DNA of 64,000 nt from an uncultured Rickettsiales bacterium. GTDB lineage: Bacteria > Pseudomonadota > Alphaproteobacteria > Rickettsiales > UBA8987. Below, one piece after another: positions 3,528-58,584 of this stretch. A program made the translations under genes and the position numbers. Positions within the stretch are counted from its first letter, which is position 1. The number at the start of each line of letters is the position of its first letter. The stretch spans positions 910 to 64,909 of the forward strand of contig CAZPQM010000010.1 in the NCBI GenBank assembly GCA_964588995.1. The letters run 5' to 3'. The notes under the pieces were generated by a model that was given only the letters and a program-made list of their open reading frames with translations, made no database searches and was not told the origin of the DNA.

Positions 3528-3544
3528 TGCCTACCACTTTTACT

Positions 3545-3903
3545 GTCATCCTGAGCGGAGAGCGTTTCGCTCGCAGTCGAAGGATCTTATGAAACAGTAT
3601 TATGTATATATTCTTACCAATTATGCGTGTACCGTTCTGTATACGGGGGTCACTAACAATTTAGAACGAAGAATGTTGGAGCATATCCAGAAACGTGTTC
3701 CAGGTTTTACTCAAAAATACAATGTAACCCGCTTGGTATACTTTGAAGATAGCGTAAGTATTGAAGCTGCGCTTGCCCGGGAAAAACAAATTAAAGGATG
3801 GACACGCAAAAAGAAAATCGCCCTGATTGAAGGGGTTAATCCGAACTGGGATGATTTGACTGCAACGTGGTTTAAAGATTCTTCGGCTACGCCTCAGAAT
3901 GAC
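3545..3903 (+). mobile_element. palindromic element carrying a GIY-YIG ORF between its arms (candidate autonomous copy of the 96-bp hairpin family)
   Basis: The left arm gtcatcctgagcgg..gtcgaaggatctt (3545-3588) and right arm aagattcttcgg..cctcagaatgac (3875-3903) are inverted repeats at both their outer and inner ends. The same arms, joined by a 14-nt loop, form the ORF-less copy at 33168-33263. Confidence 0.6.
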
Positions 3904-3924
3904 AAGATGGAAGAGTACGCATGA
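3589..3924 (+). CDS. stand-alone GIY-YIG nuclease family protein (UPF0213-like, ~110 aa)
   Basis: From the ATG at 3589: MKQYYVYILTNYACTVLYTGVTNNLERRMLEHIQKRVPGFTQKYNVTRLVYFEDSVSIEAALAREKQIKGWTRKKKIALIEGVNPNWDDL, the full small GIY-YIG pattern. The track ORF start at 3514 is an upstream read-through of the left arm. The stop overlaps the ampG ATG (ATGA at 3921-3924). Confidence 0.85.
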   Translation: MKQYYVYILTNYACTVLYTGVTNNLERRMLEHIQKRVPGFTQKYNVTRLVYFEDSVSIEAALAREKQIKGWTRKKKIALIEGVNPNWDDLTATWFKDSSATPQNDKMEEYA

Positions 3925-5297
3925 CCGGCTTTGGTGCCTATCTGAAACCGAAACTGATCGTCGTGCTGCTGCTCGGCTTTTCGAGCGGTTTGCCGCGGCT
4001 GCTGATTGCTTCTACCTTAAGTGCGTGGCTTTCGGATAGCAATATTGAGCGTGCAGCGATCGGACTGTTTGCCTATGTTTCCCTGCCGTACAGCTTCAAT
4101 TTTCTTTGGGCACCGTTTATCGATAATCTGCGCTTGCCGCTCTTTTCAAGGCTGGGTCGGCGCGTTGGCTGGGGTATTTTTGCGCAAATGATGGTCGCAG
4201 GCAGCCTGATCTGGCTCGGTCTTAGTGACCCGGCGATAGCGCCCGCGATGACGGCGCTAGCCGCACTATCGGTCGCGTTCTTCTCCGCCTCGCAGGATGT
4301 GGTGATTGATGCCTACCGGACGGAGTATCTCGAAAGCGCCTATTACGGGCAGGGGGCGGCCAATGCGGTGTTCGGCTATCGGCTCGGGATGCTGGTAGCG
4401 GGTGCGGGTGCGCTCTTTTTCGCCGATCATATTCCGTGGACGCAGGTCTATTTCATCATGGCGGCCTTCATGCTGGTTGGTATGATTACGCTGCTGCTGT
4501 CGGGTGAGCCGATAGTTGCAACGTCATCGCCTGAATCGCACAGCGATTCTAGGGCGATCTCCACCAACGCAGCACATGATTCCCCTAGAATTGCCACTGG
4601 CAATTCAGGGAATGACGTTAAAGCAAACTTCTTCCACCATGCCGTGATTGAGCCATTTACCGAGTTCGCCCGTGCGCATCCGCATTGGTTGCTGATTCTA
4701 CTGCTGATCGCCTTCTACCGTATGCCGGACGGGTTTATCGGCTTTATGGCGACGCCCTTTATGCTGGATATCGGCTTTAGCAAAACCGAGGTGGCGAGCA
4801 TCAGCAAACTCTACGGCTTTATCGCGATGACGATCGGCACGATTGCAGGCGGGGCGCTGGTCGGTAAATGGGGGCTATGGCGCGCCTTGTTCTGGTTCGG
4901 CATCATGCAGGTGCTCGCCAATCTGTCGTATCTGTTGCTGGCTAGCTATGGCGCAGAGATCGCGTTGTTGATGGTAACGATTTCACTCGATCAGCTGGCA
5001 GGCGGTCTGGTGACCGCTGCTGCGATTGCCTATATGATGAAGCTCTGCGATCCGCGCTTTACCGCGACGCAATATGCATTGCTGGCAAGCCTTGCCTCCC
5101 TTGCGAGCATATTGCTTGCCGGTGCGGCCGGTTGGGTCGCCGATCAGTATGGCTGGCCGGCGATGTTCAGCCTGTCGGCCTTTATGGGCCTGCCCGCGCT
5201 CGCGCTCCTGCTGCGGTTGAAGGGGCATGTGTCATTTGAAACGCCAGACAAAGCTGAAGGTGAGGAAGCGCGCATCGTCAATCGGGATAACGGTTAA
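3921..5297 (+). CDS. ampG: AmpG-family muropeptide MFS permease
   Basis: 458-aa polytopic ORF. The N-terminus LLGFSSGLPRLLIASTLSAWL and the multi-TM layout are typical of AmpG. The central loop contains a 32-codon repeat insertion. Confidence 0.8.
   Translation: MTGFGAYLKPKLIVVLLLGFSSGLPRLLIASTLSAWLSDSNIERAAIGLFAYVSLPYSFNFLWAPFIDNLRLPLFSRLGRRVGWGIFAQMMVAGSLIWLGLSDPAIAPAMTALAALSVAFFSASQDVVIDAYRTEYLESAYYGQGAANAVFGYRLGMLVAGAGALFFADHIPWTQVYFIMAAFMLVGMITLLLSGEPIVATSSPESHSDSRAISTNAAHDSPRIATGNSGNDVKANFFHHAVIEPFTEFARAHPHWLLILLLIAFYRMPDGFIGFMATPFMLDIGFSKTEVASISKLYGFIAMTIGTIAGGALVGKWGLWRALFWFGIMQVLANLSYLLLASYGAEIALLMVTISLDQLAGGLVTAAAIAYMMKLCDPRFTATQYALLASLASLASILLAGAAGWVADQYGWPAMFSLSAFMGLPALALLLRLKGHVSFETPDKAEGEEARIVNRDNG
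4522..4617. repeat. 96-bp palindromic element inserted in-frame in ampG
   Basis: cgtcatcgcctgaat (4522-4536) is the inverted repeat of attcagggaatgacg (4603-4617) with 2 mismatches, and inner gattctaggg / ccctagaatt also pair. The element encodes ..SSPESHSDSRAISTNAAHDSPRIATGNSGND.. in the central loop. Confidence 0.65.
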
Positions 5298-5307
5298 GCG
5301 TTTATAA

Positions 5308-5457
5308 CGTCAACGCGAACGCTGTGCCGCGATCTCGGGCCGCAGCATTTCGCAAGAGATTGCCACGCGGCTTTGTCACTCGCAATGACAGACAACGGGT
5401 CATTCTGAAGACCGGAAGATCCGTTGCCGTAACTGCTATGAAGCTCCTCAGATCAAG
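5308..5457. repeat. two adjacent palindromic elements filling the ampG-phoB intergenic region
   Basis: Element 1 (5308-5389) is cgtcaacgcgaacg..gcgatctc // gagattgccacgcgg..ctcgcaatgac. Element 2 (5399-5457) is gtcattctgaagaccggaagatcc .. gaagctcctcagatcaag, a degenerate copy of the gtcatYctga / tcagRatgac family. Confidence 0.55.
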
Positions 5458-17804: not shown

Positions 17805-17960
17805 CGTCATTCCTGTTTTACCCCGTCATCACAAGGAGGGTGTTTGCCCGACGCGGTGATCTCAGGCCATATGTCTGTCATTACAAGCCGAATGCGACGT
17901 AATGTCATTATGGGTTCCCCTGCACGAGATTGCTTCGTCGTTTCACTCCTCGCAATGACG
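17805..17960. repeat. cluster of CGTCAT...ATGACG palindromic elements in the intergenic region
   Basis: A solo cgtcattcctg end at 17805 is followed by cgtcatcacaaggagg..gcggtgatctc (17824-) paired with gagattgcttcgtcgtttcactcctcgcaatgacg (-17960). An internal gtcattac..gtaatgtcat palindrome lies between them. Confidence 0.55.
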
Positions 17961-32684: not shown

Positions 32685-33740
32685 ATGGAGCAGTTGCCTA
32701 CTATTACCCATATCCACGCCGTACTCGTCACCTATCGGCCGGATCCGGCAGTTACGGATCGGCTGGAGGCAACCCATAAGCAGGTGGAAAAACTCATAAT
32801 TATAGACAATGCTTCCGATGCGGCAACCGTAGAAAGGCTGCAAACCTATGCGGCACAGCATGAGAAAACGGTGGACCTTATCCTGAACGAGCATAATAAA
32901 GGCCTCGCAGCTGCGCAGAATCAGGGCATCCGCTACGCGCTGGAGCATGGCGCGGACTGGATATTGCTGCTGGATGATGACTCCACCCCAGCCGAAGCTA
33001 TGGTGCAGATATTATTGGATTTCCTGCCCCGGCGTGGCGACGGTGGCCCTCAAGGCAAACCAACCGCCCTGCTGGCTCCGCATATAATCCAGCCCGACAG
33101 CCCGCACCCGACGCGTTATGTCGTACCGAGGGGTAAGCTCGGCTTTCGGCGAGTGCATTTTAGTGGCCGTCATTCTGAACGAGGCGCAGCCGAGTCGAAG
33201 AATCTTCCTCCTGACCAAGTAAGATCCTTCGATTCCGTGCAAGCGCGCTTCACTCAGGATGACAACGAGCAGAACACCCTCTACCCGACAACCGTCATCG
33301 CCTCCGGCTCGCTGATCCATGCGGATGTGCTGCGGGAAATCGGGCTGATGCGGGAGGATTTTTTTATCGACTATATCGATACGGAATTTTGTCTGCGTCT
33401 GCGTAAGCATGGCTACCCTATCATTGTGGTGCGTGATGCTGAACTGACGCACCATATTGGCGCTAAGCAGGCCCATGCGCTGGGTGTGGTCACCTCCAAC
33501 CATAGCGCAAAACGCCGCTATACCATCTTCCGCAACCGCTTCATCGTCTGGAAACAGTATCATCGCTCCTCCCCACACTATGTTCTCTATGACGCGATGG
33601 CAGCGTGTTATGATCTCTTCCGCATTCTTGCTTTTGAGCAGCAAAAACGTAGTAAGCTAGGCGCCGCTTTAAGGGGTTTATGGCATGGGGTACGCGGCAA
33701 AATGGATTTTGTCCCTTACATATTGTTAAAAAATGAATAG
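32685..33740 (+). CDS. family 2 glycosyltransferase (rhamnosyltransferase-like)
   Basis: VLVTYRP, IIIDNASD, GLAAAQNQG and LLLDDDS (DxD) motifs. It carries a 32-codon repeat insertion at aa 162-193. Confidence 0.8.
   Translation: MEQLPTITHIHAVLVTYRPDPAVTDRLEATHKQVEKLIIIDNASDAATVERLQTYAAQHEKTVDLILNEHNKGLAAAQNQGIRYALEHGADWILLLDDDSTPAEAMVQILLDFLPRRGDGGPQGKPTALLAPHIIQPDSPHPTRYVVPRGKLGFRRVHFSGRHSERGAAESKNLPPDQVRSFDSVQARFTQDDNEQNTLYPTTVIASGSLIHADVLREIGLMREDFFIDYIDTEFCLRLRKHGYPIIVVRDAELTHHIGAKQAHALGVVTSNHSAKRRYTIFRNRFIVWKQYHRSSPHYVLYDAMAACYDLFRILAFEQQKRSKLGAALRGLWHGVRGKMDFVPYILLKNE
33168..33263. repeat. 96-bp hairpin element (ORF-less relative of the GIY-YIG element) inserted in-frame in the GT2 gene
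   Basis: Left arm gtcattctgaacgagg..gtcgaagaatctt (33169-33206), 14-nt loop, right arm aagatccttcg..cttcactcaggatgac (33221-33263). Position 33168 is codon position 1 and the length is exactly 32 codons, encoding RHSERGAAESKNLPPDQVRSFDSVQARFTQDD. Confidence 0.7.
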
Positions 33741-33859: not shown

Positions 33860-35605
33860 ATGACAGACGCATTGGATATGAACACGCTGCTGAGCGCGAA
33901 TAGCTGGCCGTTTCAGGAGGCAAAAAAGCTCAAAGAGCGTATCGAAAAAACACCGCCGGAAAAAGGCTATGTGCTGTTTGAAACCGGCTACGGCCCTTCC
34001 GGCCTGCCGCATATCGGCACGTTCGGCGAAGTGTTCCGCACGACTATGGTCCGTCAGGCCTTTGCGCGGATTTCCCACTATCCGACCCGGCTGATCGCCT
34101 TCTCGGATGATATGGACGGTTTGCGTAAAGTTCCGGATAACGTGCCAAACCCGAAGCTACTTGAGGCAAATCTGGGCAAGCCACTCACCGAAGTGCCCGA
34201 CCCGTTTGAGCAATATGACAGCTTCGCCGCGCATAACAACGCTAAGCTTCGTGAGTTTCTTGATCAGTTCGGCTTCGCCTATGAATTCAAAAGCGCAACG
34301 GAATGCTACCGCTCCGGTGAGTTCGATGAGGCGCTACTGGCCGCCCTGAAGCAATATGACGCTATTATGAAAATTATGCTGCCGACGCTCGGAGAAGAAC
34401 GTCAGCAAACCTATTCGCCCTTTATGCCGATTGACCCCGAAACGCGGCAGGTCTTACAGGTCAAAACCTTAGAGACGCGACCCGAACAAGGTACGATTAT
34501 ATATGAGCACCCTGAACACGGGCCAACCGAAACCAAAGTCACGGGCGGCGCCGTCAAACTGCAATGGAAACCTGATTGGGGCATGCGCTGGGCGGCGCTG
34601 GGTGTCGATTATGAAATGCACGGTAAGGATCTAACGCCATCGGTGGTGGTGTCGAGCAAGATTGCACGTGTGCTGTTGAAAGAGATGTATACTCGTAACT
34701 CCCCCTTGACGGGGGAGCCTGAGAATGCGGATGCATTGTCAGGTGGGGGTGGTATTATCCAAACCCACACCCCCCCTCCTGCATCTAAGATGCAGACTCC
34801 CCCGCAAGGGGGGAGTTACACCCTACCCGAACCGCCACTGACCTACGTCTATGAAATGTTTTTGGATGAGAAGGGCGAGAAAATTTCCAAATCCAAAGGC
34901 AACGGCATCAGTCTGGAGGATTGGCTGAGTTACGGTACGCCGGAAAGCCTTGCACTCTATATGTTCAATAATCCGCGCAAGGCCAAACGGCTGTATTTCG
35001 ACGTGATCCCTCAGCATGTCGATGAATATCTGAAACATCTGCAAGCGGTTGACCCCGAGAATCATGTGAAGCTGCTGCTGAATCCGGTCTGGCATATTCA
35101 TAACGGTGAGGTGCCGGAGGACGCAGTACCGATAACTTTCAGCCTGCTGCTCAACCTCGCAAGCGCGTGCAACCCGGAAGATAAATCGGTGCTCTGGGGC
35201 TTTATTACGCGCTATCAGCCGGACGCTATGCCGGAAACGCATAAACTGCTCGATGAGCTGGTGGAATATGCGATTGCGTACTATGAAGATTTTGTGAAAC
35301 CGCATAAGGAATATCACACGCTCTGCGACAAAGGCCGCGCGATCATGGAAGATATGAAGGACCGGCTACGCAAGGTTGCTGATCCGAATGATCCGGCAGA
35401 ATTGCAGCAAGTGGTGCTGGATACGGCAAAAGCGCATGGTTTTGAAAAAGACACGATGCGTGATGCCTATAAGCTGCTGTACCGCACCCTCTTCGGGCAG
35501 GAATCCGGGCCGCGCATGGGGAGCTTCATCGCGCTTTACGGGGTCGAGGAAACAATCGGGCTGATAGACGAAGCGCTCGCGCGGACCAACGATGAAGCGG
35601 CGTAA
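33860..35605 (+). CDS. lysS: lysyl-tRNA synthetase, class I
   Basis: FETGYGPSGLPHIGTFGEV (HIGH-type) and GEKISKSKGNG (KMSKS-type) motifs with class I LysRS organisation. A ~45-50-aa repeat-derived insertion lies ~25 aa upstream of the KISKS loop. Confidence 0.9.
   Translation: MTDALDMNTLLSANSWPFQEAKKLKERIEKTPPEKGYVLFETGYGPSGLPHIGTFGEVFRTTMVRQAFARISHYPTRLIAFSDDMDGLRKVPDNVPNPKLLEANLGKPLTEVPDPFEQYDSFAAHNNAKLREFLDQFGFAYEFKSATECYRSGEFDEALLAALKQYDAIMKIMLPTLGEERQQTYSPFMPIDPETRQVLQVKTLETRPEQGTIIYEHPEHGPTETKVTGGAVKLQWKPDWGMRWAALGVDYEMHGKDLTPSVVVSSKIARVLLKEMYTRNSPLTGEPENADALSGGGGIIQTHTPPPASKMQTPPQGGSYTLPEPPLTYVYEMFLDEKGEKISKSKGNGISLEDWLSYGTPESLALYMFNNPRKAKRLYFDVIPQHVDEYLKHLQAVDPENHVKLLLNPVWHIHNGEVPEDAVPITFSLLLNLASACNPEDKSVLWGFITRYQPDAMPETHKLLDELVEYAIAYYEDFVKPHKEYHTLCDKGRAIMEDMKDRLRKVADPNDPAELQQVVLDTAKAHGFEKDTMRDAYKLLYRTLFGQESGPRMGSFIALYGVEETIGLIDEALARTNDEAA
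34695..34819. repeat. composite palindromic element inside lysS, translated in-frame
   Basis: The outer units gtaa-ctccccc-ttgac-gggggag (34695-) and ctccccc-gcaag-gggggag-ttac (-34819) are each hairpins and are inverted repeats of one another. Further hairpins lie between them (cctgagaatgc/gcattgtcagg, ctgcatct/agatgcag). Confidence 0.55.
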
Positions 35606-36179
35606 AGAAGATGCTTCCGGCAATCTCTCCGCTCGTAATCAGGGTGGGAGAGAGGGGCTACGCTCTGGAGAGGATGGGGGTGAGATGGCCCCCCTCCCAA
35701 CCTCCCCGCGCACGCAGGGGGAGGAGTTAAAGGTAAACAGCACGCCGGGAGAAAAGCTAAAGAATATCTCTCTCCCGCCTACGGAAAATCCACTCATCTC
35801 CCCCCCCCTTGCGGAAAATCCCCCTATCTCCCCCCCGCCTGCGGGGGGGATTAAGGGGGGGCCAAAAGCCCCTGCCAGTCATCCTACCCATCTCCTGCGC
35901 TTTGTCGTCCGCCGGGTTATCGGGGCGAATGTCCTGCTGCTGACCGTCATCGGAGTGTGCCTGCTTGAATACCGCCATGCGCTGCTTTTGGCAGGGCTTT
36001 GCGCATTCGGATTCCTACATAATTTCAACCTGCTGAGATGGTATATCACGGAAAAGGCAGATTACCTCACTCCGGAGATACGTTCGCAGCTCGCTCCCAT
36101 CATGTTCATCATACCCGGCTTGCTCACCACGCCATACCTGATCGCTGCGTTGGCAGGGCTCGTGCTGTTTACGGTGTGA
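35592..36179 (+). CDS. possible small membrane protein (only the C-terminal half looks genuine)
   Basis: In the 195-aa ORF the first ~95 aa are a translation of the repeat cluster. The last ~95 aa have three hydrophobic helices (VIGANVLLLTVIGVCLL, LLLAGLCAFGFL, IMFIIPGLLTTPYLIAALAGLVLF). The true start is unknown. Confidence 0.3.
   Translation: MKRRKEDASGNLSARNQGGREGLRSGEDGGEMAPLPTSPRTQGEELKVNSTPGEKLKNISLPPTENPLISPPLAENPPISPPPAGGIKGGPKAPASHPTHLLRFVVRRVIGANVLLLTVIGVCLLEYRHALLLAGLCAFGFLHNFNLLRWYITEKADYLTPEIRSQLAPIMFIIPGLLTTPYLIAALAGLVLFTV
35640..35870. repeat. cluster of C-tract/G-tract hairpin repeats downstream of lysS
   Basis: ctctggagagg..gggggtgag resembles the kdsB element's right arm. 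There is a hairpin cctcccc-gcgcacgca-ggggagg, direct repeats cggaaaatccNcNNatctccccccc at 30-nt spacing, and a hairpin tccccccc-gcctgc-ggggggga. Confidence 0.5.
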
Positions 36180-58206: not shown

Positions 58207-58283
58207 CGGGGTGTAGCGCAGTCTGGTAGCGCACTTGTCTGGGGGACAAGGGGTCGTGGGTTCAAATCCCGCCACTCCGACCA
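58207..58283 (+). tRNA. tRNA-Pro (anticodon GGG)
   Basis: Hand-folded: acceptor cggggtg/cactccg (one G-U), D arm gcgc-agtctggta-gcgc, anticodon arm cttgt-ctGGGgg-acaag, T arm gtggg-ttcaaat-cccgc, discriminator A, encoded CCA. 77 nt. Confidence 0.95.
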
Positions 58284-58311: not shown

Positions 58312-58584
58312 TAGACAATGTTAGCTAATTCTGAAGTATTTTGCCATGAGACTGATGTTGTTAAAGAACAAGGAAAATATCGCCGGGAATAGTGGGCTTA
58401 TTTCCAAGAGATTTTTCGCCGTTATTTGGCAACATCAGCCATGGTTCTGCTAATTGCAGCCTAAATCGCTGCTCGCAGCGTTAAAGCGCTTGCCAATAGA
58501 ACCACTATTAACTGCACGCTTTGTCTTGCGAATCAACGATTTAGGCTAGCAACAAAATATTTCAGAATTAGCTAACAGTGTCTA
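58312..58584. mobile_element. 273-bp non-coding element with 32-bp terminal inverted repeats (MITE-like) 29 nt downstream of tRNA-Pro
   Basis: tagacaatgttagctaattctgaagtattttg (58312-58343) and caaaatatttcagaattagctaacagtgtcta (58553-58584) match as inverted repeats at 30/32 positions. The interior has nested inverted repeats (ccatgagactgatgttg/caacatcagccatgg; gcctaaatcg/cgatttaggc) and no ORF. Confidence 0.6.

Follow-up and report, generated by a model that had tools for sequence, protein, structure and literature searches.

A probable inverted dimer of tagged hairpin repeats lying in frame in a glycosyltransferase gene of an uncultured Rickettsiales bacterium, and a candidate Ssn-type partner nuclease in the same stretch

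A stretch of 64,000 nucleotides (nt) from an uncultured Rickettsiales bacterium (GenBank assembly GCA_964588995.1, contig CAZPQM010000010.1, positions 910 to 64,909 of the forward strand), hereafter called the window, carries a family 2 glycosyltransferase (GT2) gene that contains a palindromic element of 96 nt in frame. The element is read here as two hairpin repeats, or arms, in inverted orientation, each headed by a four-base tag. Arms of the same two types are also found 30 kb away in the window, where they bracket a putative GIY-YIG nuclease gene; this second arrangement is termed the cassette. The GT2 gene and the parts of its element are as follows:

32685..33740, plus strand: GT2 glycosyltransferase open reading frame (ORF), rhamnosyltransferase-like with a GT-A fold, 351 amino acids (aa) (Pfam PF00535/PF13641, TIGR01556, AlphaFold model, Foldseek GT-A matches)
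33168..33264, plus strand: 32-codon in-frame insert, read as an inverted dimer of two tagged hairpin arms with the tags outward (sequence, fold, pattern match, alignment gap, arm similarity)
33168..33206, plus strand: left arm, tag CGTC, stem ATTCT...AGAAT, then C (CGTCATTCTGAACGAGGCGCAGCCGAGTCGAAGAATCTT) (rule-based arm scan, stem-triplet covariation)
33207..33220, plus strand: inter-arm spacer of 14 nt (CCTCCTGACCAAGT) (comparison with the cassette, where the nuclease ORF occupies this place)
33221..33264, minus strand: right arm, tag TGTC, stem ATCCT...AGGAT, then C, 82% identical to the cassette arm at 3544-3588 (arm scan, similarity)

Codon 162 begins at position 33168 (33168 - 32685 = 483 = 161 x 3), and the 96 nt from 33168 to 33263 read as 32 codons without a stop codon (RHSERGAAESKNLPPDQVRSFDSVQARFTQDD), corresponding to residues 162-193 of the GT2 protein. 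A preliminary description of this DNA had placed a stop-free element of this length at the same position and in the same frame, and the ORF arithmetic and the translation bear this out. The core GTCAT...ATGAC is found at 33169-33263, and the ends of the element read GTCATTCTGA...TCAGGATGAC.

The exact GT2 protein is known from this contig alone, and its nearest relatives are 41-52% identical. In an alignment with 17 such homologues, of about 300-310 aa, the 32 residues correspond to a gap in every one of the 17, with the conserved FRR strand on one side and the VIASGS strand on the other. The best NCBIfam match, TIGR01556, aligns to the protein in two stretches, the second of which restarts at about profile position 132, just past the insert. 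The claim that the 32 aa are an insertion specific to this lineage therefore holds, since the homologues have no homologous segment and the family profile is split around it.

An AlphaFold model made on the homologue alignment has a mean pLDDT of 85 and a pTM of 0.84, and its Foldseek matches are of the GT-A fold. The pLDDT is about 50 at residues 161-193 and above 90 on both flanks. The model thus places the insert as an extra excursion, probably disordered, between two well-defined segments; that the excursion lies at the surface is what we infer. No invariant column of the 17-homologue alignment is lost: the DxD motif (D97, D99) is present, as are the columns that follow the insert. With these columns intact, and with a confident fold from which the insert departs as a low-confidence excursion, the GT2 gene looks functional despite the insert.

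As a whole the element (33168-33263) folds into a near-perfect hairpin. Its RNA minimum free energy is -44 kcal/mol (z = -4.5), with none of 200 shuffled sequences as stable, and its DNA fold has an energy of -18.7 kcal/mol (z = -2.65). The terminal inverted repeat pattern GTCATYCTGA...TCAGRATGAC has one match in the window versus zero expected. A scan of the window with Rfam at gathering thresholds, together with a permissive scan of the element, returned only two tRNAs and noise. There is no T-run after the hairpin, and a terminator role was rejected for this reason. No target-site duplication is found at the GT2 copy, as the flanking sequences, ...TTAGTGGC on one side and ACGAGCAG... on the other (...GTGGC / ACGAG...), contain no direct repeat.

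Each arm follows a simple rule, which is (C/T)GTC, then AT, three bases xyz, a loop, the complement of xyz, AT and C. In the GT2 element the tag CGTC is at 33168-33171 and the tag TGTC is on the minus strand at 33264-33261. The stem triplets of the two arms differ (TCT/AGA versus CCT/AGG), and the dimer is thus a heterodimer. Twelve arms in the window obey the rule, versus about four in shuffled sequences, and these show seven distinct complementary triplet pairs. The arms here have a tag-proximal stem of 5 bp, a loop of 22-27 nt and the tail CTT; loops in the wider subfamily are mostly of 10-35 nt.

Covariation was assessed in two sets of sequences. In loci selected by the hairpin, the base at position 6 of GTCATNCTGA is complementary to the variable base of GAAGNATC of the same arm in 166 of 183 cases, and this complementarity persists where the two arms of an element differ from one another. 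The second set consists of 345 candidate arms from loci chosen by the GIY-YIG protein and not by a DNA pattern. Here the triplets after GTCAT and before ATC are fully complementary in 167 arms, versus 38 expected by permutation, and at least eight Watson-Crick types recur. Triplet covariation inside each arm argues for a stem within the arm, and so for a structure that one strand forms by itself. Among 228 elements, 81% have T and 14% have C directly before GTCAT, and 77% of copies have both a T before and an A after the core. These two bases, at -1 and +1, are the only strongly conserved flanking bases and are not duplicates of one another; a target-site duplication is absent from the 228 copies.

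The only DNA in the window with similarity to the GT2 element is found at the two ends of the cassette (3544-3904), which has the following features:

3589..3924, plus strand: ssn-like gene, putative single-domain GIY-YIG nuclease of 111 aa, whose final codons read through the downstream arm (PF01541 with E 4e-15, SsnA homology, catalytic residues)
3544..3588, plus strand: upstream cassette arm (TGTC, ATCCT...AGGAT, CTT), TGTCATCCTGAGCGGAGAGCGTTTCGCTCGCAGTCGAAGGATCTT, ending directly at the ATG (arm scan, fold)
3875..3904, minus strand: downstream cassette arm, inverted (TGTC, ATTCT...AGAAT, CTT) (arm scan, fold)

The domain PF01541 spans residues 3-76 of the encoded protein, and Pfam detects no other domain. 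Pairwise alignment with the 94-aa SsnA ORF of Neisseria gonorrhoeae, which is flanked by the NTS repeats, gives 44% identity (E 5e-25), and N. gonorrhoeae is matched by tblastn with E 2e-15, both values being below a threshold of 1e-10. Residues Y7, Y18 and E65 do not vary among 16 homologues and, in the alignment with the gonococcal ORF, are the counterparts of SsnA Y6, Y17 and E64. By its size (about 94-110 aa in the family), its homology to SsnA and its catalytic residues the gene is a predicted member of the Ssn nuclease family (cd10448). Relatives of the protein number in the thousands and are 60-70% identical across phyla. The G+C content of the cassette and its gene is 42%, versus 53% for the window, which suggests that the cassette may have been acquired from outside.

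An AAGGA in the upstream arm could serve as a ribosome-binding site, and the last codons of the ORF traverse AAGATTCTTCGGCTACGCCTCAGAATGACA. The variable C-terminal tails of homologues (DSSLRSE, LMLRMTKK, PQDDRR, PQNDK) are encoded by the downstream repeat arm, and thus it is usual for ORFs of this family to terminate within the repeat. The GT2 element has the two arm types of the cassette in the same relative order, with 14 nt of spacer in place of the ORF. As one cassette arm of each type brackets the nuclease gene, the dimer looks like the cassette with its ORF swapped for the spacer.

The association of arms and gene is also found in other genomes. The same arms are present on both sides of the GIY-YIG gene in a verrucomicrobial metagenome-assembled genome (MAG), in Porticoccus and at other loci. 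In 80 metagenome loci the arm density is 7.7/kb within 150 nt of the gene versus 0.26/kb beyond 300 nt, a difference of about 30-fold, and there is a bias in orientation, with forward arms upstream of the gene and reverse arms downstream. A tblastn search of plasmids and chromids detected more distant homologues in Azospirillum lipoferum 4B, N. gonorrhoeae, Sinorhizobium meliloti, Rhizobium, Sphingobium and Novosphingobium aromaticivorans, and each of these six is bracketed by its own compact CGTC-tagged repeat type in inverted orientation. In one conserved operon, an ssn-like gene with a complete dimer of such repeats on each side separates sufB from sufC.

The dimer pattern, without regard to the gene, matches at least 120 bacterial genome stretches (Chloroflexota, Acidobacteriota, Bacillota, Planctomycetota, Omnitrophota and others), and further taxa among the matches listed are groups of the candidate phyla radiation (CPR), Coxiellaceae, Micavibrio and Bifidobacterium. 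It also matches 34 viral contigs; relatives of the GIY-YIG protein were not found in viral contigs.

Among 245 elements of the loci collected, 23 element-frame combinations have an uninterrupted frame across the element that extends for 60 codons or more to either side, some elements being counted twice, once per strand. Copies whose host gene is supported by Pfam include the following:

Locus L058, 6894-6967: in-frame copy in murB of a Micavibrio MAG
Locus L079, 4460-4533: in-frame copy in purL of an Omnitrophota MAG
Locus L097, 2646-2719: in-frame copy in tatD of a Saccharibacteria MAG
Locus L108, 1528-1640: in-frame copy in recG of a Parcubacteria MAG
Locus L033, 698-780: in-frame copy in a phage terminase gene

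Further Pfam-supported copies are found in genes for a GH63-like hydrolase and a DNA methylase. The commonest frame, xGT-CAT-YCT-GAR...CAG-RAT-GAC, encodes C/R-H-S/P-E...Q-N/D-D and is the one used in GT2. A third frame of the repeat is shut by the TGA within TCCTGA or TCTGA, and the other two are free of stop codons. In-frame copies are thus a general property of this long-loop subfamily, reaching distant phyla, CPR bacteria and phages. The core length is 2 mod 3 in 10 of 12 copies taken as genuinely intragenic. A fixed gain of one base at insertion was considered and is unproven, as this core length is already expected in about 59% by stop-codon geometry; cores of this class are open in two frames versus one for the other classes.

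Close in description to the elements found here are the CGTC-tagged repetitive extragenic palindromes (CGTC REPs), which have a tag of CGTC or TGTC and a stem starting with A-T, and which form inverted dimers and heterodimers (Di Nocera et al. 2013, PMC3733652). They are common in Alphaproteobacteria, Micavibrio among them, and count among their members RPE-4 and RPE-6, two Rickettsia palindromic elements (RPEs) of Rickettsia conorii, as well as the Neisseria repeat dRS3 (PMC3733652). Intragenic dimers encode 20-30 aa, with ampG and murB among the target genes in R. conorii, and the encoded peptides include VIPAKAGI, CHSRESGNP and ...RGND (PMC3733652, Additional file 3). The GT2 and cassette arms resemble these repeats in the CGTC or TGTC tag, the stem start and the arrangement as an inverted heterodimer. 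In addition, the GT2 peptide R-H-S-E...Q-D-D is in the same frames as CHSRESGNP and ...RGND; the frames characteristic of intragenic dimers start with V-I-x or C/R-H-x and end with N/D-D or M-T. The RPE had been named as the precedent for the element, and by tag, stem start and peptide frames this choice was apt, as the arms fit the class to which RPE-4 and RPE-6 belong. It had also been supposed that the lineage is other than Rickettsia; in agreement, the window has a G+C content of 53%, and the best relatives of its GT2 and of its lysyl-tRNA synthetase (LysRS) are from MAGs of Alphaproteobacteria, Hyphomicrobiales and Rhodospirillaceae.

A partner enzyme for such repeats is described in Neisseria. 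SsnA, a 94-aa GIY-YIG protein of N. meningitidis, binds the repeat CGTCATTCCCGCGMAVGCGGGAATCYRG as single-stranded DNA (ssDNA) only and cuts a few nt upstream; for cleavage the three bases that precede the palindrome are important, for binding the C that follows it, and the enzyme is inactive on RNA (Chenal et al. 2025, PMC11893778). Homologues of other Neisseria and of Wolbachia cut their own repeats, and in all, four homologues specifically bind and cleave the cognate repeat (PMC11893778). The repeats, defined as a class termed Ssn-related motifs (SRM), are found near 71% of ssn genes, and Ssn is encoded in 81% of the genomes with more than 200 SRMs (PMC11893778). The system lowers transformation by repeat-bearing DNA, and its repeat-ssn-repeat layout was likened to an insertion sequence; NTS repeats are described as rarely intragenic, and translated copies, RPEs and CGTC REPs are not discussed (PMC11893778). 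The cassette in the window is like this system, in which NTS/dRS3 are the Neisseria repeats, in that a single-domain GIY-YIG gene for a protein of about 100 aa, with its catalytic residues kept, is nested between inverted hairpin repeats. The arms are like SRMs in having the HGTC tag directly before an AT-starting palindrome, a C directly after it, and many dispersed copies across phyla. They are unlike SRMs, which are compact stem-loops of about 28 nt, in that the tag-proximal stem is of 5 bp and the loop of 10-35 nt.

Other repeat systems are more remote in their resemblance. RPE-1, associated with the work of Ogata and colleagues in 2000, is said to be a palindromic repeat of about 100 bp that is found in frame in housekeeping genes and tolerated as a surface segment. 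The GT2 insert is similarly in frame and presumably tolerated; RPE-1 is set apart by its description as another family in another host, and the likeness is a functional analogy only. In the REPIN/RAYT system, or REPtron, GTAG-tagged hairpin monomers form dispersed inverted dimers, and the enzyme gene is flanked by the repeats. The RAYT enzyme is similar to the HUH Y1 transposases and acts on ssDNA hairpins. The elements described here differ in their YGTC tag and in having a GIY-YIG partner. Classical miniature inverted-repeat transposable elements (MITEs), such as Correia and Nezha, are short and non-coding, have terminal inverted repeats and are sometimes read through in frame. Unlike a MITE of a DDE transposon, the GT2 copy has neither a target-site duplication nor a DDE transposase partner, and its arms are structured, tagged hairpins.

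Taken together, the 96 bases are most probably an inverted dimer of tagged hairpin repeats of the CGTC/TGTC REP or SRM class, with a cognate Ssn-type nuclease encoded at 3589-3924. A system of this sort is already described in the literature, and the element is a further example and not a new kind. On sequence grounds its arms are placed in a long-loop subfamily, as an SRM-like or CGTC-REP-like dimer that agrees with the two published definitions in spirit and departs from them to the letter.

Several observations weigh against this assignment. The four published CGTC families have a stem of 8-9 bp, a loop of 4-5 nt and the tail CCA (PMC3733652), versus 5 bp, 22-27 nt and CTT in the arms here. 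The published SRM search string, HGTCWYN(0-2)YYVSBRHN(0-5)WNVSBRGN(0-2)RNCYNB, matches none of the six arms tested (from the GT2 element, the cassette and ampG). It also has no match within 200 nt of the gene at any of the 80 loci of the closest nuclease relatives, 75 of which carry a GTCAYNCYGA arm. The string was correctly implemented, as it matches the loci of A. lipoferum, N. gonorrhoeae, S. meliloti, Rhizobium and Sphingobium, five of the six named species. By folding energy the single GT2 arms fold no better than shuffled sequences, so that the stem within the arm rests on the covariation. The GT2 arms are 80-89% similar to arms in unrelated genomes versus 82% to those of the cassette, and a local parent-daughter relation between the two was rejected as unsupported because the GT2 arms are not closer to the cassette than to foreign arms. 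Within the 64 kb this subfamily has only a single dimer and a single cassette. Nor was an empty-site allele found; the nearest GT2 homologue is only about 50% identical. It should also be noted that translation of the insert, function of the GT2 protein and activity of the nuclease are predictions.

The other palindromes of the window are listed here:

4522..4617, plus strand: ampG element, a related dimer of a different subfamily (stems ATCGC/GCGAT and ATTCC/GGAAT, with a nested hairpin in each arm) (arm scan, fold)
1857-1952: kdsB element, palindrome CCCTCACCCT...AGGGTGAGGG, 96 nt by its terminal-repeat boundaries, in frame in kdsB/CMP-KDO synthetase (1579-2421)
34695-34819: in-frame insert of about 49 residues over another palindrome, GTAACTCCCCC...GGGGGGAGTTAC, in the class I LysRS gene (33860-35605)
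5359..5389, minus strand: solo arm (stem ATTGC/GCAAT), intergenic after ampG (arm scan)
17825..17959, strand not assigned: intergenic cluster of three arms (stems ATCAC/GTGAT, ATTAC/GTAAT and ATTGC/GCAAT) (arm scan)

The ampG element, also of 96 nt by its terminal-repeat boundaries, is in frame in a variable central loop of ampG (3921-5297) and adds about 25 residues relative to eight homologues. In KdsB, residues 88-129 are unaligned with the solved KdsB structures, which indicates a real insert. Searches with blastn and nhmmer found no similarity between the GT2 element and either of these two; the ampG element shares only the tag-plus-stem architecture, and the kdsB element, which in addition lacks the GTCAT tag, is a separate repeat family. 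The preliminary description had counted the GT2, ampG and kdsB elements as three intragenic copies: the common length of 96 nt and the in-frame insertion in ampG and kdsB stand, and the three are not copies of one element. The LysRS insert is missing from seven homologues of 520-532 aa. Translated palindromes are therefore plentiful in the window and represent at least three families.

Three further structures were observed. The solo-arm clusters at 17825-17959 and 5359-5425 have differing, compensating stems in an arrangement like that of small bacterial interspersed mosaic elements (BIMEs). The ORF at 35592-36179 has no Pfam match, and its first 100 residues or so are encoded by short C/G-rich palindromes (e.g., 35820-35859), such that its N-terminus may be built of repeats or may be spurious. 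A 32-nt inverted repeat (58312-58343 and 58553-58584, 94% complementary) is found around 209 nt immediately 3' of tRNA-Pro (58207-58283), and may represent either a small mobile element or what remains of an integration site.

A series of steps can be proposed for the GT2 element. As a single strand, each arm would form a short stem, of AT and the three covarying bases, with (C/T)GTC before it and C after it. An SsnA-type nuclease would bind the arm as ssDNA and nick it a few nt upstream, as is the case for the Neisseria and Wolbachia homologues, and the nuclease of the window would be one that recognises long-loop arms. With the tags facing outward there would be one cleavable arm on each strand, and the nicks would therefore lie at the two outer edges, one per strand. 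By analogy with REPIN/RAYT, the most likely route of copying would be Ssn-dependent nicking at these edges followed by host repair or replication. A dimer would then have landed in the part of the GT2 gene that encodes a loop between two beta-strands. Because the net length is a multiple of three and the frame is one of the two that are free of stops, the GT2 frame stays open and the repeat would be translated, with the 32 residues presumably tolerated in the protein.

A broader proposal can be made only tentatively. Here the Ssn-type GIY-YIG nucleases would be the missing mobilising enzymes of the CGTC REPs and RPE-type palindromes; the arm-ssn-arm unit would be autonomous and the arm-spacer-arm dimers its non-autonomous derivatives, which would spread by ssDNA nicking at their outer edges and could colonise genes in frame, in hosts ranging from Alphaproteobacteria to CPR bacteria as well as in phages. 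The cassette had previously been called a candidate autonomous partner, and indeed it encodes an Ssn homologue flanked by the same arms; the word autonomous was too strong, as what is known of Ssn proteins is that they bind and nick the repeats as ssDNA and modulate transformation (PMC11893778).

The competing view with the most in its favor, although still rather unlikely, is that the hairpin is functionally unrelated to the GIY-YIG gene. The nuclease would then be a selfish, homing-type gene with a preference for repeats, and the dimers would spread by another enzyme, by replication slippage or by template switching. A GIY-YIG gene is indeed found within 8 kb in only one of about 150 hairpin-selected loci, and layouts vary: 12 of the 66 loci with enough flanking sequence have no arm in the 120 nt upstream or the 150 nt downstream, and some have a reverse arm upstream. 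The disparity in G+C between the nuclease gene and the window (42% versus 53%) and the 60-70% identity of its relatives across phyla are as expected of a gene that moves horizontally, and Di Nocera et al. found no dedicated transposase or other enzyme with the CGTC REPs (PMC3733652). However, four Ssn homologues bind and cleave their cognate repeats, and 81% of the SRM-rich genomes have an Ssn gene (PMC11893778). In the six named species, moreover, repeat type and nuclease lineage vary together. It is less probable again that the insertion inactivated GT2, in which case the open frame would be the luck of a recent hit and the 32 residues would never have been part of a working enzyme. Two of the three repeat frames are stop-free on either strand, so that an open frame after an insertion of 3n bases is not rare, and the strong RNA hairpin (-44 kcal/mol) could hinder translation. 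Against this, the ORF is of full length with every invariant column kept, DxD included, the GT-A model is confident with the insert as a separate low-confidence excursion, and such inserts are tolerated in essential genes elsewhere (murB, purL, recG) as well as in the class I LysRS and kdsB of this window.

Two further explanations are very improbable. The 32 residues might be an ancestral or independently evolved GT2 loop in which the DNA palindrome is a coincidence, and the insert does fall in a loop that is variable in the GT2 family; yet none of the 17 homologues has the segment, and the termini of the palindrome are common to hundreds of repeats in other phyla and to the local cassette. 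Equally doubtful is a removal of the element after transcription or translation, in the manner of an intron or intein, which would leave the protein unaltered. The strong RNA hairpin is the sole point for such a removal, whereas the element has no Rfam family and no intein or intron features, and SsnA does not act on RNA (PMC11893778). The Pfam-checked intragenic copies are all in a stop-free frame, which also argues against removal but is not an independent test, because the search was limited to open frames that span the element.

The assignment of the GT2 element to an inverted dimer with an Ssn-type partner has several consequences. What is new here is the long-loop subfamily, its in-frame copies in distant phyla, and the tie between RPE-type palindromes and Ssn. 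The published SRM string misses this widespread subfamily, so that both Ssn targets and peptide insertions derived from repeats are likely to be undercounted in surveys. For annotation, the inserts in GT2, ampG, kdsB and LysRS are to be regarded as repeat-derived and not as lineage-specific domains. The GT2 locus joins the work on translated RPEs and CGTC REPs (2000-2013) to that on Ssn and SRMs (2025), two bodies of literature without mutual citation in the papers considered here. It would be a clean case, outside of Rickettsia, of a coding gene that tolerates a selfish palindrome with a likely cognate ssDNA nuclease on the same contig. If Ssn is indeed the mobilising enzyme, then the window holds both partners, in a long-loop subfamily that the SRM definitions have missed.

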